NCBI GenBank assembly: GCA_043809315.1
Contig: JAZDDX010000038.1
Location: forward strand, 14,159-78,158
Source of the DNA: Pseudomonadota bacterium
Lineage (GTDB): Bacteria; Bdellovibrionota_G; JALEGL01; DATDPG01
DNA: 64,000 bases
Direction of reading: 5' to 3'
A model generated the notes under the pieces. It did no database searches, was not told the origin of the DNA, and was given only the letters and a program-made list of their open reading frames with translations. Positions within the stretch are counted from its first letter, which is position 1; each line of letters begins with the position of its first letter. Below are positions 19,318 to 41,016 of the stretch, one piece after another. The position numbers were made by a program, and so were the translations under genes.

Positions 19318-19386
19318 TTCCTAAACCAAATCAACCTCCTAGTAAAGAACAGGGACGAAACGACACCGGTGTCATTAATTCACAGG

Positions 19387-19407
19387 GAAAATAAACGTTT
19401 AAAATTC
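19387..19407. promoter_or_regulatory. AT-rich imperfect palindrome GAAAATAAACGTTTAAAATTC about 70-90 nt upstream of the ZIP gene (candidate Fur-family/Zur operator)
   Basis: Centred on the perfect palindrome AAACGTTT with partially symmetric AT-rich flanks. It is the only such AT-rich dyad in the leader. Confidence 0.25.
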
Positions 19408-19810
19408 GCAAGCCATTAGAATCATTGATGTCTGTGGTTTTCCCAACATTGGCACGCGTCCTGCTGTAACGAATGACCGAAGGAGAAGAGAAACAGGAGG
19501 ACGCCATGATGAACGAGAGACAAAAGAAGATGATGGGCGATGCCGGATACGCTCTTTCTCCGCTGATGTAATGGAGCGATATCCACAAAACCTGGGGATA
19601 ACCACGATGAAAAAGAACCCAATCTTCGGTCACTACTCGATCTGGCGCGGCTCCGAGCGAAATGCCTCATTCTTGGGCATCAAAAAGATCGGCCAAAATC
19701 AACCGTTTTTTCCTGTTCTGCGACATGGGATGACCCCCATGGATTCGAGTTGAGGCGCGACACGGAATATCCCCAGATGGGGATAGAATCGGCCCTTAAC
19801 GTAGTGTCAC

Positions 19811-20173
19811 CTACGTTCGCAGGCCGGTGGTAGCGCGAGTCGAAACGTACCGCGCGATCTCGGTTCGGATCTCCGGAGTGGCGTCGAGGAACTCGAGCGC
19901 CAGACGAGGACTGGTGTCATTTCGCTCCACCCGGACGACCTTTCCATAGACCGTAATGACCAGATCGCTCTTCGGAAGCTTGAACTGCATCCGGATTTTG
20001 GTCCCGACGAGCGGGACGACTTTTTCGTTTGCAAGAGCCTGAGCATCGACCGCTAGACCCTGCTCGGAAATGTTGAGGGCATAGCCGAAGCCGATCGCCT
20101 CCCCTTCGGCGGAGCCGATTCGCATCGAAACCGGAACCCGCGGCGCGCGCCGCTTTTCGTCTTTGATGACCAT
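19811..20173 (-). CDS. PilZ-domain c-di-GMP receptor
   Basis: RRAPR (RxxxR) and NISEQG (D/NxSxxG) motifs at the correct spacing. Confidence 0.7.
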   Translation of the reverse strand: MVIKDEKRRAPRVPVSMRIGSAEGEAIGFGYALNISEQGLAVDAQALANEKVVPLVGTKIRMQFKLPKSDLVITVYGKVVRVERNDTSPRLALEFLDATPEIRTEIARYVSTRATTGLRT

Positions 20174-20192
20174 CGTCCGGCAACCTAAAATT

Positions 20193-20266
20193 TGGCTCCG
20201 GGACAAGGATTCGAACCTCGATAAGCAGGTTCAGAGCCTGCTGTCCTACCATTAGACGATCCCGGA
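20193..20266 (-). tRNA. tRNA-Gln (anticodon CTG)
   Basis: Manual fold gives a 7-bp acceptor stem TCCGGGA/TCCCGGA, 3-bp D stem, anticodon loop CTCTGAA and T-arm CGAGG-TTCGAAT-CCTTG. The 3' G-CCA end is encoded. Confidence 0.85.
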
Positions 20267-20374
20267 GCGACCGGGGGTTTGTGACCGAAAGGGGGTTCTT
20301 TGTCAAACGTCGCTCCTTGACGGAGCGGCGGCGGTATGGTTGAAACGCCATTCTTAAGTTCCTCGAAGACCGTT

Positions 20375-20449
20375 GGTCCCATCGTCTAACGGTTAGGACA
20401 TGGCCCTCTCAAGGCTAAAATACGGGTTCGATTCCCGTTGGGACCGCCA
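20375..20449 (+). tRNA. tRNA-Glu (anticodon CTC)
   Basis: Manual fold gives acceptor GGTCCCA/TGGGACC, anticodon stem TGGCC/GGCTA with loop CTCTCAA, T-arm ACGGG-TTCGATT-CCCGT, discriminator G and CCA. Confidence 0.85.
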
Positions 20450-20468
20450 CTTGCAGCTACGTAGAACC
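20437..20468 (+). repeat. Direct repeat copy 1 (tRNA-Glu 3' end plus 19 nt downstream), att-like
   Basis: GTTGGGACCGCCACTTGCAGCTACGTAGAACC recurs at 21682-21713 with one mismatch. Confidence 0.7.
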
Positions 20469-20618
20469 CCACATCACACTAATATTGGGGTCATGGGTAA
20501 CACCCCATCCCTCCGACCAACGACGGAGCCCGGATTGGGATCGCCAAGGACAGCATCGTAGAACCGTGCTTGATCCCAGAACCTCGACAGATCTGAATCC
20601 CTCGGACATGAGAGCCAT

Positions 20619-21608
20619 ATGATTTGGACTCTCTTAATTCTTTTCTTGATCCAGCAAGCATCAGCCGGATCGTTCCCAGGCACCACCACTGACTTTCACG
20701 TGGGCATCAAGACTCTGAAGTTCACAGATGTGGCAAGAACACGAAATATCGATATGCGGATTTGGTACCCCGTCGATACCGTTAACCCGGCCAAGGTGCT
20801 TTTTGATGGACCGGTATTCCTGCCAGTGAACGCGATCGAAGATGCTCCGATCGCAAAGGCACCAACGAAGTTCCCGTTGATCATTCTATCCCACGGCTCC
20901 GGAGGCCTAGGAATTCGGCTTTCGTGGCTTGCAGAGTTCCTTGTCCGGCATGGATACATCGTCGTCACTCTCGATCACCCCGGCAACCGTGCACAGGACA
21001 ACTCGCCGGAAGGCTTAATGCGTGTCTGGGAACGGCCGAAGGACGTGTCGTTTGTGTTGAGTCAAACACTCAAGGACAGGGAATTCGCTAATCACATTGA
21101 CGCGACAAGAATTGGAGCCGCCGGACATTCCGCTGGGGGTACCACGGTCCTTCTCTTGGCAGGAGTGCGCCTCGACAAAAAGAGGCTTGCAAATCCAATA
21201 CCCGGGTGTGCGGGTTCAGATCCGTATTTTCTTCAACTGTGCGAGGGTATGAAGAAACTAAATCCGAAGAAATACGCCACTGAAGACGTTGAATGTTCAT
21301 ATCGCGACGATCGTATACGCGCGGTGGCCTCGTTCGACCCCGGCTTCGGGCCTTCCTTCAACCCCGAAAGCTTCAAATCGGCCAAGACGAAGATACTGGT
21401 TCTTGCTGCCGGAACACTTCATGACCCGGCGGATGAACTGTTCACCGCATCTCTCAGGGATTCCTTGGGTCTCGGAAGTTTCGAATTGATAAAGGAAGCG
21501 GACCACATGACCTTTCTCACGCCTTGTAAACCAGGTGTGGAAGTCACAATTCCTGATGTGGCTGACGTGTGTTGGCGGAGCGTCGATCGGGCTCGCTTAC
21601 AGGAATAA
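20619..21608 (+). CDS. Secreted alpha/beta hydrolase (dienelactone hydrolase / PAF-acetylhydrolase-like), lower-GC gene between the direct repeats
   Basis: Signal peptide, LSHGSGG and GHSAGG (GxSxG) motifs. Codon usage is visibly more AT-rich than the neighbouring genes. Confidence 0.65.
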   Translation: MIWTLLILFLIQQASAGSFPGTTTDFHVGIKTLKFTDVARTRNIDMRIWYPVDTVNPAKVLFDGPVFLPVNAIEDAPIAKAPTKFPLIILSHGSGGLGIRLSWLAEFLVRHGYIVVTLDHPGNRAQDNSPEGLMRVWERPKDVSFVLSQTLKDREFANHIDATRIGAAGHSAGGTTVLLLAGVRLDKKRLANPIPGCAGSDPYFLQLCEGMKKLNPKKYATEDVECSYRDDRIRAVASFDPGFGPSFNPESFKSAKTKILVLAAGTLHDPADELFTASLRDSLGLGSFELIKEADHMTFLTPCKPGVEVTIPDVADVCWRSVDRARLQE

Positions 21609-21681
21609 GTTAGGGCCCGCGTTTTGAAATTCTTTCAAGAATCGCTCTAGCTGGATCTGATGTGGGGTTCAATTATCTACA

Positions 21682-21713
21682 GTTGGGACCGCCACTTGTA
21701 GCTACGTAGAACC
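21682..21713 (+). repeat. Direct repeat copy 2 (degenerate tRNA-Glu 3' end), att-like
   Basis: GTTGGGACCGCCACTTGTAGCTACGTAGAACC, preceded by a degenerate T-loop-like GGGGTTCAATT. Confidence 0.7.
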
Positions 21714-21801: not shown

Positions 21802-22818
21802 ATGGCACTCAAGATCGGCGGGCTGCTCGTCTCCATGGGCCTTGTGAGCCCCGACAAGGTCGATCAAGCGTTGGAACACCAGAATACACATGGGGGAAGG
21901 TTGGGGTCGATCCTGGTGGGGTTGGGGTTTGTCTCCGACCACGACTTGGCCCGTGTCCTATCCGAACAGCTGCATCTCCCAGCCGCGAAATACGATGAGT
22001 TCAAAGCGATTTCAGAGTCTGCGATCAGGGCCATGTCAGCCGATTTTGTTAAGGAGCACCAGTGTATCCCTCTCGTTCTGCGCCATCGCATCCGCGTGGC
22101 GATCGCCGATCCATGGGAAATCAAGGCAATCAACGAATGGGGATTGCAAAACAGTTTACAGGTACAGATGGTCCTCGCGCCGGAAATCTGGATCATCGCG
22201 GCGATGGAGCGATACTATCGAATCACACGTCCGGACCGCTTCAATGCTGCGGAATCAGCCGAGACTTTGCCTGGAGATGAAAACAAGGGGAGCCGTCCCG
22301 CGGAGGTGATCGCAAACAACACTATCTCCTTTCCGGTTTTTCAAAAACAGCTGGCCGAATCTCGATCCAAGGAGGAAATCTTTGACGTTCTTTTGAACTA
22401 TCTCGCGCCCATCCTCCCCCAGATCGCCGTCTTTGTGCTGCGGAAAGGGTTTGCCGTGGGCTGGCTGGTGCATGGTCTTCCGGTGCGCCCGTCTGTTTTC
22501 GGTAAGATCGAGATCCCCCTTTCGGTTGCGACGTCGTTGGCAACCGTGGTGAATTCCAGGGAGCCCTTCCAAGGCATAATCGCCCAGGATGCCGCCACTC
22601 GAATGAGGTTTGATTTGTTGCAGATCGACCCCGGTCAGCAGATCCGTCTTTGCCCGATTGTGTTCCGCGGCCAGGTCGCCACGGTCTTGCTCGGCATACC
22701 GAATCAACCACTTTCATCCGACCAAGAAAAGGTTGTGTTCCAAGCCTGCGGGAAGATGGAAGCCGCGATCGAAATGCTCGTTTATCGGAAAATTATTCTG
22801 GCCCCCTTCCTGGAATAA
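21802..22818 (+). CDS. MshEN-domain (T2SS GspE N-terminal-like) c-di-GMP-binding protein with uncharacterised C-terminal half
   Basis: RLGSILVGLGFVSDHDLARVLSEQ fits the 24-residue MshEN motif RLGxxLxxxGxVxxxxLxxxLxxQ at every position. Confidence 0.7.
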   Translation: MALKIGGLLVSMGLVSPDKVDQALEHQNTHGGRLGSILVGLGFVSDHDLARVLSEQLHLPAAKYDEFKAISESAIRAMSADFVKEHQCIPLVLRHRIRVAIADPWEIKAINEWGLQNSLQVQMVLAPEIWIIAAMERYYRITRPDRFNAAESAETLPGDENKGSRPAEVIANNTISFPVFQKQLAESRSKEEIFDVLLNYLAPILPQIAVFVLRKGFAVGWLVHGLPVRPSVFGKIEIPLSVATSLATVVNSREPFQGIIAQDAATRMRFDLLQIDPGQQIRLCPIVFRGQVATVLLGIPNQPLSSDQEKVVFQACGKMEAAIEMLVYRKIILAPFLE

Positions 22819-23139
22819 GGACCGCCAATTGAATCAGTAGTTCATCCGTAATGACCTCTATTGGAAACGTCGCCCAACTCGTTCGCGCTGGCGTTCCGCT
22901 CGAGTCTTTCTGGCCTTCAGGTAATGGGGTAGAGAGAGCACTCCGTAACGACCTCAGAGATTTGCACAAGGGATCCGCAACCTTTTTGAAGGCCAGATCC
23001 CTACGGATGAATGTTCCTTTCGGGGATATGGACCGAAAGGTGTGCGAGAAACTCTAACGGGATAAATGTAAGATGGAGGCCGCTCCGGGTCGAAAAAAAC
23101 ACCCGGTCCTGGGCATACGAGAGCCGCGGCAAGAACTTC

Positions 23140-23156
23140 CGTTCGAAATTCGAACG
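23140..23156. promoter_or_regulatory. Perfect 17-bp palindrome CGTTCGAAATTCGAACG about 30 nt upstream of the gatE start
   Basis: 8-bp arms with a 1-nt spacer. It shares the GTTCGAAC core with the tandem repeats at 55128-55171. Confidence 0.3.
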
Positions 23157-23187
23157 AGTACAATGCCGCACCCGGACAAGAACCACG

Positions 23188-25317
23188 ATGCCCGACGCGA
23201 ATCAAAACGGGATCTTCTCCCCCTTGAGCGGAAAACTGCGCGAGCCGGAGTTCTACGAGGCCCTCGGCTTCCGCTCCGGTCTCGAAATCCACCAGCAGCT
23301 CCTGACGGAAAAGAAGCTCTTCTGCCGCTGCCCGGCGGGGAGGTACACCCGGACGCACGACGCGGTGATCCTGCGCCACATGCGTCCCACTCTATCCGAA
23401 CTCGGCGAATACGACGGAACGGCGCTCATGGAGTTCAAGACGAAGAAGGACATCGTCTACCTCCTGAACCGCGAAAACGTCTGCACGTACGAGATGGACG
23501 ACACGCCTCCGTTCCTCATCAACGAGACGGCGATCGACATCGGGATCGAGATCGCACTCCTTCTCAAGTGCCAGATCGTCAACGAGATTCACGTCATCCG
23601 GAAACAGTACCTCGACGGCTCGATCCCCACCGGTTTCCAGCGGACCGCGATCCTCGGAGTGGACGGAAAGATCCCGTTCCGAGGCCGCGAGATCTCGATC
23701 GTTCAACTCGCCGTGGAGGAGGACTCCTGCCGGGAGGTCACCGACGAACGCCACCGGATCACCTTCCGAACGGACCGCCTGAGCATGCCGCTTTCGGAAA
23801 CGGTGACCGGCCCCGACATGCGAACACCCGAGGAGGTGGCGGCCGTCTGTGACCTCCTCGGGCGAGTCGCTCGGGTGACGGGGCACGTGCGCCGGGGGAT
23901 CGGAAGCGTCCGACAGGATGTCAACGTCTCCATCACCGGCGGCCTGCGGGTGGAGATCAAAGGGGTCAGCCGCATCCCTTTTATCCCCGAACTCGTGCAC
24001 AACGAGGCGCTCCGTCAGTCGAGACTCCTCGGAATCCGTGAGCATCTTCGCAGCCTGGCGCTTACGCGGGAAAATCTCGCGGGCGGACAACACGAGGTAC
24101 GGGAGTTCTTGGCGAAGACTTCCGCCCCCCTCCTTCGGAAGGCGGTGAACGAAGGCCTCAGCATCCGGGCGCAGGTGTTGCGCGGATGCCGGAAGGTCTT
24201 GCTCGCGAAGACACAGCCCGGCTTGGTCTTCGCGCAGGAACTCAGCGGGCGCGTGCGCGTGATCGCCTGTCTCGACGACCCGGTGAATCTCTTCGTCCGC
24301 GACGAACCTCACGGATTGGGTCTGGCGCGCCAGCGGTGGGAACAGGCCCCCCGCGATCTTTGCGCGGGCCCCTCCCTGGATGAGTGGAAGCGGCTGGCGA
24401 AGAGACTTCATGTCACGGAGGAGGACGGAGTCGTCCTGACCTTCGGTTCCGCGGAGGACACACTCACGGCCGCGAACGAGATCCGGAACCGGATGGTCGA
24501 GGCTCTCGAGGGGGTCCCCCACGAAACGCGGATGCCGTTCCCCTCCGGCACAACCGACTTCGAACGGATCCTCCCGGGACCGGACCGAATGTATCCCGAC
24601 ACCGACCATCCCCCGGTCGCCCTGAAGGACGAGCGTTTCGCCGAGATCGCCTCCCGCCTTCCCGAACTCCCGTGGACGAGAGAGGCCGCGCTGAAAGAGA
24701 TCGGACTGAACGGGACGGTGATCCGCGCCCTTGCGATCTCCCCCCACTACCCCCTCTTCCGCGAGTTCGTCTCCCGCCCCGGAGGGCGGGCCCGGGCCGC
24801 CGTCCTGGCCTGGCTCTTCGTCGAGCTTCTGAAGTTTCTGCGCCGCGACGGTGTTCCGGTCGAAACCCTCCGGGAGGCCGACCTTCGGTATGTCACGGAG
24901 CTGTATCTTTCGGGCCGGCTGCAACGCGAGGGGCTCCAGATCGTCCTGACACGGCTCGCGAGGCGCCGGGTCGCGATCGCTGGAACCCGGGAGGAAACCG
25001 ACCGCCCGGAGACCGTTCTCGTCGCGATCCTGAAGGAGGAGTTCCCCGAAGTGGCCGAGAAGAAAACGCCGCTCGGTGCGCCGTTCGTCGATCTCCCCCG
25101 TTTGATGGAAACCACGCTTCGCCTGGCATTCCCGGGGGAACCTCAGCGGCTCCGAACGCTCATGGGGGTCGCCATGCACCGGTATCGGGGCGTGGCTCCG
25201 GGTAGAGAGATCGGCCAGGCGGTCGAGGCGTGGTGCAAGAAACACCCGGATCCATCGGCCAAAGAGACCCTCGTGCGACTTTCCGCGCAGGGAAAAAAGG
25301 GAGCGAGGAAGAGATGA
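23188..25317 (+). CDS. gatE: Glutamyl-tRNA(Gln) amidotransferase subunit E, archaeal-type GatE
   Basis: N-terminal GLEIHQQLLTEKKLFCRCPAG is the GatB/GatE family signature. At about 709 aa it has the GatE-type insertion. Its stop overlaps the ATG of an asparaginase-like GatD (ATGA). Confidence 0.8.
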   Translation: MPDANQNGIFSPLSGKLREPEFYEALGFRSGLEIHQQLLTEKKLFCRCPAGRYTRTHDAVILRHMRPTLSELGEYDGTALMEFKTKKDIVYLLNRENVCTYEMDDTPPFLINETAIDIGIEIALLLKCQIVNEIHVIRKQYLDGSIPTGFQRTAILGVDGKIPFRGREISIVQLAVEEDSCREVTDERHRITFRTDRLSMPLSETVTGPDMRTPEEVAAVCDLLGRVARVTGHVRRGIGSVRQDVNVSITGGLRVEIKGVSRIPFIPELVHNEALRQSRLLGIREHLRSLALTRENLAGGQHEVREFLAKTSAPLLRKAVNEGLSIRAQVLRGCRKVLLAKTQPGLVFAQELSGRVRVIACLDDPVNLFVRDEPHGLGLARQRWEQAPRDLCAGPSLDEWKRLAKRLHVTEEDGVVLTFGSAEDTLTAANEIRNRMVEALEGVPHETRMPFPSGTTDFERILPGPDRMYPDTDHPPVALKDERFAEIASRLPELPWTREAALKEIGLNGTVIRALAISPHYPLFREFVSRPGGRARAAVLAWLFVELLKFLRRDGVPVETLREADLRYVTELYLSGRLQREGLQIVLTRLARRRVAIAGTREETDRPETVLVAILKEEFPEVAEKKTPLGAPFVDLPRLMETTLRLAFPGEPQRLRTLMGVAMHRYRGVAPGREIGQAVEAWCKKHPDPSAKETLVRLSAQGKKGARKR

Positions 25318-26720
25318 GCCAGGGCCCGACCGTCGTAACGCACGACCCGCAGCAAGGGTACCGACCGCCTACGCTCGACGTCTTGCGGGAATACGGCGCG
25401 GCGGTCTGGAACGACGTGGAGATCGCAACGAAAAACGGAACGTTCCAGGGGATCATTCTTCCCCGTTCCGAGACCGCCGACGCGAATCACATCGTGATCA
25501 AGCTTCACAACGGCTACAACGTCGGTCTGCGCGCCGATCTCGTCGAGAAGATCACGGTCCGCGGCACCCGGGAAGCCAAATACAAGATCAAGGAGAAGGT
25601 GTTCCCGATCGATCCGGGGAAGCCGGCCGTCAGCCTGCTCGGGACCGGAGGGACGATCGCCAGCCGCCTCGACTACCGGACCGGGGCCGTGATCCCCGCT
25701 TTCTCGCCGGGGGAGCTGTACGGCGCCGTCCCCGAACTGGCGGACCACTGCAACCTGAAAACCAAAAAACTTTTCGGAATCTTCAGCGAGAACATCGCCG
25801 CGGAGCACTGGGTGGCGATGGCCAAGGCGGTCGAAGAGGAGATTCGGGACGGGGCGGACGGCGTGATCATCGGGCACGGCACCGACACCATGCACTATTC
25901 CGCCGCAGCGCTCACGTTCATGGTGCAGAATTCTCCGGTCCCGATCATCTTTGTCGGCTCGCAACGGAGCTCCGATCGCCCTTCTTCGGACGCCGCACTC
26001 AATCTGATCACATCCACCCACGCCGCGGGCCGGTGTGACATCGCCGAGGTGATGGTCTGCATGTTCGGACCGACCTCCGACCAATACGCGCTGCTCCACC
26101 CCGGGACGAGGGTCCGGAAGATGCACTCCTCCTACCGCTCCACGTTCCGCACGATCGGGGACATCCCGCTCGCCACCGTCTCCCCCACCGAGATCAAGCT
26201 ACTCCGGACGGACTACAAGTCGCGCCGGAAGGACCGGAACGTTTCGGTGAACACGGCGTACGACGACCGGGTTTCGATCGTCTACTACTACCCGAACATG
26301 AAGCCGGACATCATCGACTCGCTGGTCGACAACGGCTACCGCGGGATCGTCATCGCCGGGACCGGCTTGGGGCACATCAACAAGCCGCTCTACCCATCGA
26401 TCCGGCGTGCCGTGGAGCGAGGGGTCCACATCTACATGACGGTCGAGACGCTCTGGGGGTACGTGCAGATGTACGTCTACGACACCGGTCGGGACTTGAT
26501 GGAGCTCGGGATCATCCCCGCCGCGAACATGCTCCCGGAGACCGCCTACGTGAAGCTGATCTGGGCGTTGGGGCAGTCGCAGGATCGCGAGAAGGTGAAG
26601 GAGATCATGCTCACGCCGATCTGCCGCGAGATCACGGAACGGGAACCCCACGACGGCTATCTCATCCTCCAGGGGGGGATCCCCGAGGTGCGCGAGATGA
26701 TGTCGCATCTCTGGAAGTAG
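25314..26720 (+). CDS. gatD: Glutamyl-tRNA(Gln) amidotransferase subunit D, GatD (asparaginase-like)
   Basis: About 100-aa N-terminal extension followed by an L-asparaginase fold containing LLGTGGTIAS. Confidence 0.8.
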   Translation: MSQGPTVVTHDPQQGYRPPTLDVLREYGAAVWNDVEIATKNGTFQGIILPRSETADANHIVIKLHNGYNVGLRADLVEKITVRGTREAKYKIKEKVFPIDPGKPAVSLLGTGGTIASRLDYRTGAVIPAFSPGELYGAVPELADHCNLKTKKLFGIFSENIAAEHWVAMAKAVEEEIRDGADGVIIGHGTDTMHYSAAALTFMVQNSPVPIIFVGSQRSSDRPSSDAALNLITSTHAAGRCDIAEVMVCMFGPTSDQYALLHPGTRVRKMHSSYRSTFRTIGDIPLATVSPTEIKLLRTDYKSRRKDRNVSVNTAYDDRVSIVYYYPNMKPDIIDSLVDNGYRGIVIAGTGLGHINKPLYPSIRRAVERGVHIYMTVETLWGYVQMYVYDTGRDLMELGIIPAANMLPETAYVKLIWALGQSQDREKVKEIMLTPICREITEREPHDGYLILQGGIPEVREMMSHLWK

Positions 26721-27070: not shown

Positions 27071-27319
27071 TTGGGCTTCGAGGTCATCAACACGCCGGCC
27101 TACAGTCCGCAATCAAACGGCATGGCCGAGGCCTTCGTGAAGCTGTTCAAGCGGGATTACGTGTACGCCAACGATCTGTGGACGGCGGAGTCGGTGATGC
27201 GGATGGTCCCGGGTTGGTTCGACGACTACAACCGAAACCACCCTCATTCGGGCTTGGATTTTCGGTCGCCGTTGGAGTACAGAAATGAGGCCTTTTTAGA
27301 GCAACAACTGTCCGTTTAA
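27071..27319 (+). mobile_element. C-terminal fragment of a DDE (rve) integrase-type transposase, IS481/IS3-like; 5'-truncated
   Basis: YSPQSNGMAEAFVKLFKRDY and YNRNHPHSGLDFRSPLEY are the conserved C-terminal motifs of rve-family transposases. Only about 80 aa are present. Confidence 0.6.
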
Positions 27320-40446: not shown

Positions 40447-41016
40447 TCAATGATCTCCCAACCCGGAACCGTGTTGTTCCCGCGGAATAACGCATTCACG
40501 ACTCTCGTCGGACCCTCCCATCCTTCCCACGAGGTTCCGTCCCCTCTTCCTTTTCTGCCATCGTGAAACAGCACTACGCCACCCAACCTTCACGAACCGT
40601 GACCAGTCATCCCAATCGCGGCGACAGGATTGTTCCAAATGATCCCCGTCAATAAAGAGGAGATCGATCGGTTTGTCCCAGGTTTTGACAACGTTCCAGC
40701 TGTAGTTTTCATGCCACACGATTTGTCCGTTGGAAACGGCGCCTACGCTTCGAATCGTAAATTCTTTTCGCGCAACGAGATTCCGATTCATGCTGTCAGG
40801 AACAAATGGATCAATCAGATGTAGCGTCGCATCCCTCGACATTGCCTTTCGGAACACCGCCGCGGAGGCTCCCTCAAACACGCCGATTTCCACCAGAACC
40901 GTCCTCCCGCGTGCATACTTCTCAAACAATGGTTTCTCGGTGGGGAACGTAAGATCCCTGGGCTGAGGATAATGGAGGGAACGCTTTGGATCCCTATCGG
41001 AATCTCTTACTTCCAT
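40447..41016 (-). CDS. Class I SAM-dependent methyltransferase (O-methyltransferase-like)
   Basis: Motif I VLVEIGVFEGASA, LIDPF and LLFIDGDH are present. The last ~40 aa do not resemble the family. Confidence 0.5.
   Translation of the reverse strand: MEVRDSDRDPKRSLHYPQPRDLTFPTEKPLFEKYARGRTVLVEIGVFEGASAAVFRKAMSRDATLHLIDPFVPDSMNRNLVARKEFTIRSVGAVSNGQIVWHENYSWNVVKTWDKPIDLLFIDGDHLEQSCRRDWDDWSRFVKVGWRSAVSRWQKRKRGRNLVGRMGGSDESRECVIPREQHGSGLGDH

Follow-up and report, generated by a model that had tools for sequence, protein, structure and literature searches.

A probable decayed, integrase-less islet at the 3' end of a tRNA-Glu(CUC) gene, with an esterase-like gene as its only cargo

Integrative elements of the conjugative (ICE) and mobilizable (IME) types leave decayed remnants, termed cis-mobilizable elements (CIMEs), which keep both attachment sites, attL and attR, and have lost the genes for integration and transfer (Guedon et al. 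2017, PMC5704250; ICEberg 2.0, PMC6323972). Accretion at their att sites, in the form of CIME-IME tandems, is documented (PMC5704250). The ssrA islands of Dehalococcoides show tandem direct repeats of the 3' end of a small-RNA gene, and some of their units have no integration module and have been suggested to be cis-mobilizable (PMC3146451). tRNA fragments left by integrating elements are also a recognized annotation problem, mainly in archaea (van der Gulik et al. 2023, PMC9897764). Here, we examine a 64-kb stretch (the window) of contig JAZDDX010000038.1 from a Pseudomonadota bacterium. We consider it probable that positions 20469-21681 of the window form a decayed, integrase-less, CIME-like islet, the remnant of an element that inserted at the 3' end of tRNA-Glu(CUC) and whose cargo is now a single gene for an alpha/beta hydrolase.

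Like a CIME, the islet lies between direct repeats that take in the 3' end of its target gene, has no integrase or transfer genes, and holds cargo only; a third, internal att-like copy of the repeat fits the accretion model for CIME-IME tandems (PMC5704250). It differs in that it is very small (1.2 kb, one gene) and has no known cognate integrase-bearing element, its descent from an ICE or IME is presumptive, and the CIMEs described are mostly from Firmicutes. With the Dehalococcoides ssrA islands it shares a target at the 3' end of a small-RNA gene, a direct repeat at the far boundary (20 bp there), several repeats in a row, and low-GC cargo (PMC3146451). Those islands, in contrast, range in size from several kb to tens of kb, and a serine-recombinase module stands beside attL in many of them, whereas the islet has none and its target is tRNA-Glu. 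Copies 2 and 3 of the repeat, counted from the tRNA gene, resemble the partial tRNA fragments described elsewhere (PMC9897764) in being noncanonical 3' fragments beside an intact gene, but they are too short for tRNA calling, and a low-threshold Rfam scan gave no partial-tRNA call for either. The islet is similar to an integron gene cassette in being a single-gene unit of about 1 kb with recombination site-like repeats and no recombinase of its own. Its repeats, however, are tRNA-derived direct repeats with no attC-type imperfect palindrome at the boundaries, there is no intI or attI nearby, and no integrase was found among the window ORFs scanned; we therefore rejected an integron cassette.

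The boundaries are marked by a 32-mer, GTTGGGACCGCCACTTG[C/T]AGCTACGTAGAACC, which occurs at 20437-20468 and again at 21682-21713 with 31/32 identity and a single C/T difference, the second site starting 1,245 nt downstream of the first. Copy 1 reads GTTGGGACCGCCACTTGCAGCTACGTAGAACC and joins the final 13 nt of tRNA-Glu, in which the CCA is encoded, to the 19 nt that follow. When as many as 3 mismatches are allowed, these two are the only sites in the 64 kb, against an expectation of 0.00 from 100 dinucleotide-preserving shuffles, so we rejected a chance repeat. At its left end, copy 3 extends farther into the tRNA: GGGTTCAATT (21665-21674) aligns with tRNA-Glu GGGTTCGATT, with two 2-nt indels between it and the repeat, and in total 49 nt (21665-21713) align with tRNA-Glu positions 20424-20468. 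This T-arm-like stretch is not significant by itself (227/2000 shuffles reach its score) and carries weight only through its contiguity with the repeat. The first-pass annotation had described a divergent tRNA-Gln/tRNA-Glu pair, a 32-bp repeat of the tRNA-Glu 3' end, and a degenerate T-loop before the second copy. The pair is called by both ARAGORN and Rfam, the repeat is significant against shuffles, and the T-loop is present, with the limit just given.

A third copy of the repeat had not been recognized in the first-pass annotation, nor had the truncation of the hydrolase gene described below. The core of this middle copy (copy 2), at 20534-20565, shows 24/32 identity and starts 97 nt after copy 1, and its leftward extension amounts to only 4 bases, CCCG. 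The maximum among 200 random 64-kb sequences matched in composition was 23; because copy 2 exceeds that maximum and lies only 97 nt from copy 1, we regard it as homologous rather than as a chance match. No further copy was found downstream in the window.

The similarity of all three copies is lost at the identical right-hand base (...CGTAGAACC; ending GTAGAACC), whereas on the left it fades gradually, and a single shared sharp boundary of this kind fits att sites. All three are in the same orientation and are 3'-end fragments, copies 2 and 3 starting in or after the T-arm. Upstream of copies 2 and 3, similarity to the 5' two-thirds of the tRNA is no better than that of shuffled sequence (1142/2000 and 227/2000, respectively). 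Further, copy 3 has no space for a whole tRNA, since the ancestral stop codon of the hydrolase gene lies 14 nt before the T-arm-like stretch. The lack of 5' similarity and the lack of room at copy 3 indicate that the copies are 3'-tail fragments rather than decayed whole tRNA genes. Fragments are what integration would leave; duplication of a whole gene would not give them. The 19 non-tRNA bases of the repeat hold a perfect 8-bp palindrome, CTACGTAG, which by its position is a plausible candidate for the crossover or core region.

The sole credible open reading frame (ORF) between the repeats encodes the hydrolase. Its Pfam matches are PAF-AH_p_II, Abhydrolase_6, and PETase-like, and it has weak PDB sequence matches to solved cutinase/PETase-type esterases and platelet-activating factor (PAF) acetylhydrolases. 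In an alignment with ten homologues, every invariant residue is kept, including four cysteines. Ser171 (in a GHSAGG motif), Asp240, and His296, which are invariant in the family, are taken to be the candidate catalytic triad. The N terminus is hydrophobic, resembles a signal peptide, ends in an Ala-X-Ala motif (ASA), and is common to all aligned homologues; together with the four invariant cysteines, this suggests that the protein is secreted or exported. An in-frame TAA at 21606-21608 is premature by 13 codons relative to the ancestral end, and tblastx similarity to the nearest homologue, on Logan contig L081, continues past this stop to 21650. The gene is truncated, and its decay may have begun. 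A sigma-70 scan found no promoter-like site upstream of it, and terminator-like matches fall within the ORF or else upstream of the two tRNA genes, in a number within shuffle expectation.

The composition of the gene sets it apart from its surroundings. Its GC content is 0.527, compared with 0.599 for the window, and its GC content at third codon positions (GC3) is 0.564 (z=-2.5), the second-lowest value among the 39 window ORFs used for codon-usage statistics, compared with a mean of 0.746. Its codon usage (z=-2.2) is the worst fit to pooled usage among the same 39 ORFs, whereas the flanking PilZ, MshEN, GatE, and GatD genes have typical codon usage. A single secreted, low-GC alpha/beta hydrolase in a 1.2-kb interval had been proposed at the outset, with GC and codon usage as the check; the single gene and its low GC hold, and its codon usage is indeed the most atypical, while secretion is a prediction from the N terminus. 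Elsewhere in the window, a Methyltransf_24 methyltransferase gene at 40447-41016 (-) is as atypical as the hydrolase gene (GC3 0.553; codon-usage z=-2.1) and may be another recently acquired gene.

The hydrolase is 100% identical to NCBI MFH1263849.1, which belongs with MFH1263848 and MFH1263850 (locus tag V1495_10480 for MFH1263850.1) to one metagenome-assembled genome (MAG). The next-best protein among 5.8 billion (P0002) shows 70% amino acid identity, and all others show 47% or less. P0002 is encoded on the 2.15-kb contig L081, which has no tRNA and no repeat and on which a second hydrolase gene follows; nucleotide and translated similarity between the window and L081 is confined to 20687-21650. 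The sequencing run that gave L081 also gave a contig, L090, that shares the PilZ gene of the window, accompanied there by secreted-protein and membrane-protein genes as in two other relatives, L086 and L089. Contigs of this lineage have GC contents of 0.42-0.59. A plausible donor pool for the hydrolase gene therefore exists, and the most economical reading would place the origin of the gene in a lower-GC member of this same broad lineage.

Approximately 59 ORFs from across the window were compared with Pfam. None encodes a tyrosine or serine recombinase, and none is a phage or conjugation gene; the search for an integrase suggested in the first-pass annotation thus found none among the window ORFs scanned. 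The only mobile relic in the window is an 82-amino-acid DDE-transposase fragment at 27071-27319 (+) (Pfam rve_3, E=4.6e-13), which lies between the GatD and GH18 genes, 5.4 kb beyond the repeat. It matches the C-terminal part of a DDE transposase, has no recognizable upstream transposase part, and is a 5'-truncated insertion sequence (IS) remnant, an element of a different kind from the islet. We rejected a transposon, IS, or miniature inverted-repeat transposable element as the source of the islet itself: there is no inverted repeat at the boundaries, a 32-nt direct repeat is much longer than a target-site duplication, and no transposase lies between the repeats. The locus had also been taken for the left border of a larger acquired region. 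This claim is not supported, as downstream composition is typical (codon-usage z of -0.9 for MshEN, +0.5 for GatE, +1.5 for GatD, and +0.2 for GH18), without mobile hallmarks or a further att copy.

Table 1. Features of the tRNA-Glu locus and its flanks (window positions)
Feature	Position	Strand	Evidence and remarks
tRNA-Glu(CUC), intact, CCA encoded; putative integration target	20375..20449	(+)	ARAGORN (ctc); Rfam 64.7 bits, full-length model match
Repeat copy 1 (attL-like)	20437..20468	(+)	Last 13 nt of tRNA-Glu plus 19 nt; contains 8-bp palindrome CTACGTAG
Spacer, 60 nt	20469..20528		No ORF with a family match; alignment to tRNA 5' part at shuffle level (1142/2000)
Repeat copy 2, degenerate tRNA-Glu 3'-end fragment	20529..20565	(+)	CCCG plus 24/32 identity
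Cargo gene, 329-aa alpha/beta hydrolase (cutinase/PAF-acetylhydrolase-like serine esterase)	20619..21608	(+)	Pfam; PDB sequence search; homologue alignment
Ancestral 3' end of hydrolase ORF	21609..21650	(+)	Encodes VRARVLKFFQESL*, matching conserved C terminus of homologues
Repeat copy 3 (attR-like)	21665..21713	(+)	Degenerate T-arm 21665-21681, then 32-nt repeat 21682-21713 (31/32 vs copy 1)
tRNA-Gln(CUG)	20193..20266	(-)	ARAGORN (ctg); Rfam 62.2 bits; divergent partner of tRNA-Glu; last element of synteny block common to relatives
PilZ-domain gene, left-flank host context, synteny anchor	19811..20173	(-)	Pfam; homologues and synteny; 19 nt from tRNA-Gln 3' end
MshEN-domain gene, right-flank host context, outside islet	21802..22818	(+)	Pfam; codon-usage z=-0.9; 88 nt past repeat

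The locus has several features of a tRNA-integrated islet: it lies next to an intact tRNA gene, has a distal direct repeat of the tRNA 3' end, is atypical in composition, and has putatively foreign DNA from 20469 on. An integrase near one end is missing, the hydrolase gene being the only ORF between the repeats. As in CIMEs, attL and attR are retained (at the sequence level only), and genes for integration and transfer are lacking. In the mechanism we propose, the attP site of the element would have corresponded to the stretch that runs from the tRNA T-arm past the CCA into the next 19 nt. Its recombination with the site in the chromosome would have kept the tRNA intact at the attL-like junction (20437-20468) and displaced a copy of its tail to the far, attR-like junction (21665-21713), so that integrase would have made both junctions. 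Later deletions would have removed the integrase gene and any transfer genes, leaving one cargo gene, for a predicted exported serine esterase, which would then have gained its premature stop. Copy 2 (20529-20565) could result from two successive integrations (accretion) or from an element that already had an old att scar, and would accordingly be an older or an internal att remnant; the 60-nt spacer may be all that is left of an earlier element, or it may be the islet's left arm. Insertion by this route predicts an empty site in which tRNA-Glu would be followed by CTTG(C/T)AGCTACGTAGAACC-ACCAAGCCCAAAGG..., with the MshEN gene about 107 nt on. It also predicts that the excised unit would have the circular junction ...ATTATCTACA-GTTGGGACCGCCACTTGYAGCTACGTAGAACC-CCACATCACAC....

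Several observations weigh against this reading. An empty tRNA-Glu site was seen in no relative, and synteny with relatives (58-74% amino acid identity) ends at tRNA-Gln. Viral and metagenome collections yielded no cognate integrase, no attP, and no intact version of the element, and the att core had 0 exact matches in metagenome and viral contig collections. The middle copy of the repeat is far more degenerate than the outer copy, and since it is the most decayed, the simplest order of accretion does not fit all three copies. The repeat extends 19 nt past the tRNA into nonconserved spacer, which would require an attP adapted to this particular lineage. Finally, the 70% identity between the hydrolase and its homologue on L081 is approximately the core-gene divergence between these relatives, and the hydrolase may belong to the gene pool of the lineage itself rather than to a distant donor. 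Thus, the first-pass claim of a tRNA-targeted element with attL and attR that has lost its integrase is supported as to anatomy, boundary, foreign-looking cargo, and the lack of a recombinase among the window ORFs scanned, while no empty site was seen in the relatives compared, whose synteny ends at tRNA-Gln, and the searches of viral and metagenome collections for an integrase and attP came back negative. Additional searches were similarly negative: a hydrolase profile scan of viral contigs gave no match, a phage search matched only the tRNA itself, and in a plasmid search the matches listed had 35% identity or less and lay on large replicons of 0.45-2.0 Mb, all 240 being below 60%.

The comparison with relatives is informative mainly to the left of the islet. 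The block DUF547-aminotransferase IV-ZIP-PilZ-tRNA-Gln is common to four contigs, L086 to L089, at 58-74% amino acid identity, and PilZ relatives show 54-77% identity. L086 and L089 have a membrane-protein gene in place of tRNA-Glu. L087 carries a divergent tRNA-Glu gene, within which the contig breaks off shortly before the T-arm (L087 1-50); such a break would be expected if the assembly graph branched at a repeated tRNA tail, but equally if there were a second tRNA-Glu gene. A PilZ protein 94% identical to that of the window (P0164) is encoded on a 1,498-nt JGI contig, and a PilZ protein scan of metagenome contigs confirmed no relatives. To the right, a GatE scan of genome contigs gave best relatives of 44-56% identity, with tRNA-Glu or tRNA-Gln nearby in 0/60 loci scanned, and the nearest homologues of the MshEN gene (51% and 31% identity) have nonsyntenic surroundings. 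With the islet removed, the MshEN gene would lie 107 nt after tRNA-Glu, compared with 67 nt after tRNA-His in contig L083, a spacing that lends weak, indirect support to insertion.

In the window, in L082 (8597-11029), and in L083 (9967-11248), a tRNA gene, different in each, stands shortly before the MshEN-domain gene. In L082 it is preceded by tRNA-Leu and a 355-amino-acid secreted ORF, and no tRNA-tail repeat was found in that contig. In L083 it is preceded by tRNA-His and followed by tRNA-Arg and a large serine recombinase.

An origin independent of any recombinase appears unlikely to us. Homologous (RecA-type) or illegitimate recombination could have been at work, for example, in a Campbell-type insertion of circular DNA carrying the tRNA-Glu tail of a relative or in a local duplication of the tail with subsequent insertion. 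Such an origin would agree with the searches that found no integrase, attP, or intact element, and the repeat, at 32-49 nt, is near the minimum length for homologous recombination; the 19 nt of lineage-specific spacer in the repeat and the nearest homologue of the cargo, which comes from a likely relative, fit exchange within the lineage. However, three 3'-tail fragments with one sharp right boundary are hard to obtain without a site-specific process, homologous recombination is inefficient with such short identity, and the fragments begin at the T-arm, a classic sublocation for integrase crossover (PMC3146451).

We think it very unlikely that the locus is a still-mobile, minimal single-gene cassette, in which the tRNA-derived att sites would be functional and an integrase from elsewhere in the genome or from a visiting element would act in trans. 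The interval between the tRNA and the MshEN gene would then be a recurrent hot spot for cargo in this lineage. The MshEN gene stands just after a tRNA in three distant relatives, with different small cargo between the two in the window and in L082.

A decayed tandem array would require three tRNA-Glu genes in a row, two of them reduced to 3' tails, with the hydrolase gene lying between. The three tail copies in one orientation would suit such an array, and tRNA genes are often tandem, as in the tRNA cluster of L083. No 5' two-thirds are traceable upstream of copies 2 and 3, however, and copy 3 leaves no room for them; the conservation of the 19 nt past the tRNA equals or exceeds that of the tRNA part, contrary to what decay of a gene would give, and the atypical composition of the hydrolase gene would be left unexplained. 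With neither 5'-half remnants nor space for them, this history is highly improbable, and we rejected it. Similarly, there is very little chance that an assembly artefact or strain mixture joined different strains or genomes at the shared 32-mer: although the window comes from a MAG and the related Logan contig L087 breaks inside tRNA-Glu, suggesting that assemblers struggle at this tRNA, two independent chimeric joins would be needed, the inserted piece would be att-flanked in its source and so reflect the same biology, common metagenome assemblers finish with k-mers longer than 32 nt, and both flanks run on into coherent genes.

The two tRNA genes are those that ARAGORN and Rfam find in the 64-kb window and are separated by 108 nt. 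To their left, Pfam identifies PilZ, ZIP transporter, class IV aminotransferase, and DUF547 genes and then RHS/SpvB toxin genes; to their right lie genes for the MshEN-domain protein, GatE, GatD, a GH18 enzyme, and a C25 peptidase, followed by ordinary genes. The genes directly 3' of tRNA-Gln vary. There are none in the window (20174-20192) or in L088, a gene for a secreted protein of about 300 amino acids in L086 (1626-2586) and L089 (719-1654), and two genes in L087 (225-2127). A homologue of this secreted-protein gene also stands beside PilZ in L090, a contig in which tRNA-Gln was not found. Around these variable genes, L086, L087, and L089 showed no repeat of the tRNA-Gln tail.

Farther to the left, an intergenic stretch of about 490 nt (19318-19810; GC 0.46-0.50) separates the PilZ stop from the start of the ZIP-transporter gene. 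No convincing ORF and no Rfam match occur in it, and an ORF of 55-85 amino acids is called at the same place in relatives. A 220-amino-acid ORF at 16123-16785 (+) consists of two joined fragments of a TPR/Ser-Thr-kinase gene of about 1,610 amino acids. Because that gene is intact in relatives (L086 7544-12376; L087 5917-10734), the ORF is the remnant of an internal deletion. The FHA-guanylate-cyclase gene that neighbors the TPR/kinase gene in relatives is missing from the window. About 1.2 kb separates the 220-amino-acid ORF from the RHS/SpvB toxin genes (7925-14880) on its left, which lie beyond an ORF at 15001-15972.

GatDE, the Glu-tRNA(Gln) amidotransferase, is described as archaeal. An archaeal-type gene pair for this enzyme is present in this bacterial MAG at 23011-26720 (+), 2.6 kb from tRNA-Glu and tRNA-Gln. 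The best PDB match of GatE (768 amino acids) is the archaeal GatE of 1zq1 (E 3e-93), and that of GatD (496 amino acids) is the GatD of 1zq1 (E 3e-125). More than 550 relatives of GatE, at 44-56% identity, are found in bacterial MAGs (Planctomycetota, Gemmatimonadota, Ignavibacteria, Myxococcales, and others); the phrase "bacterial GatDE" has no occurrence in the literature searched. We rejected a functional link between the tRNA pair and GatDE, as their proximity is not conserved in the 60 other loci.

The islet is an ordinary feature of a known kind and has little importance beyond annotation. For annotation, the two short tRNA-tail fragments are not to be called as genes. Were the att sites still functional, the islet would be an unusually small cis-mobilizable unit. 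Read as a decayed integrated islet, the locus marks the hydrolase gene as an accessory gene that was recently acquired by a poorly sampled bacterial lineage and is probably in decay, and it identifies tRNA-Glu(CUC) as a probable integration site in this lineage.

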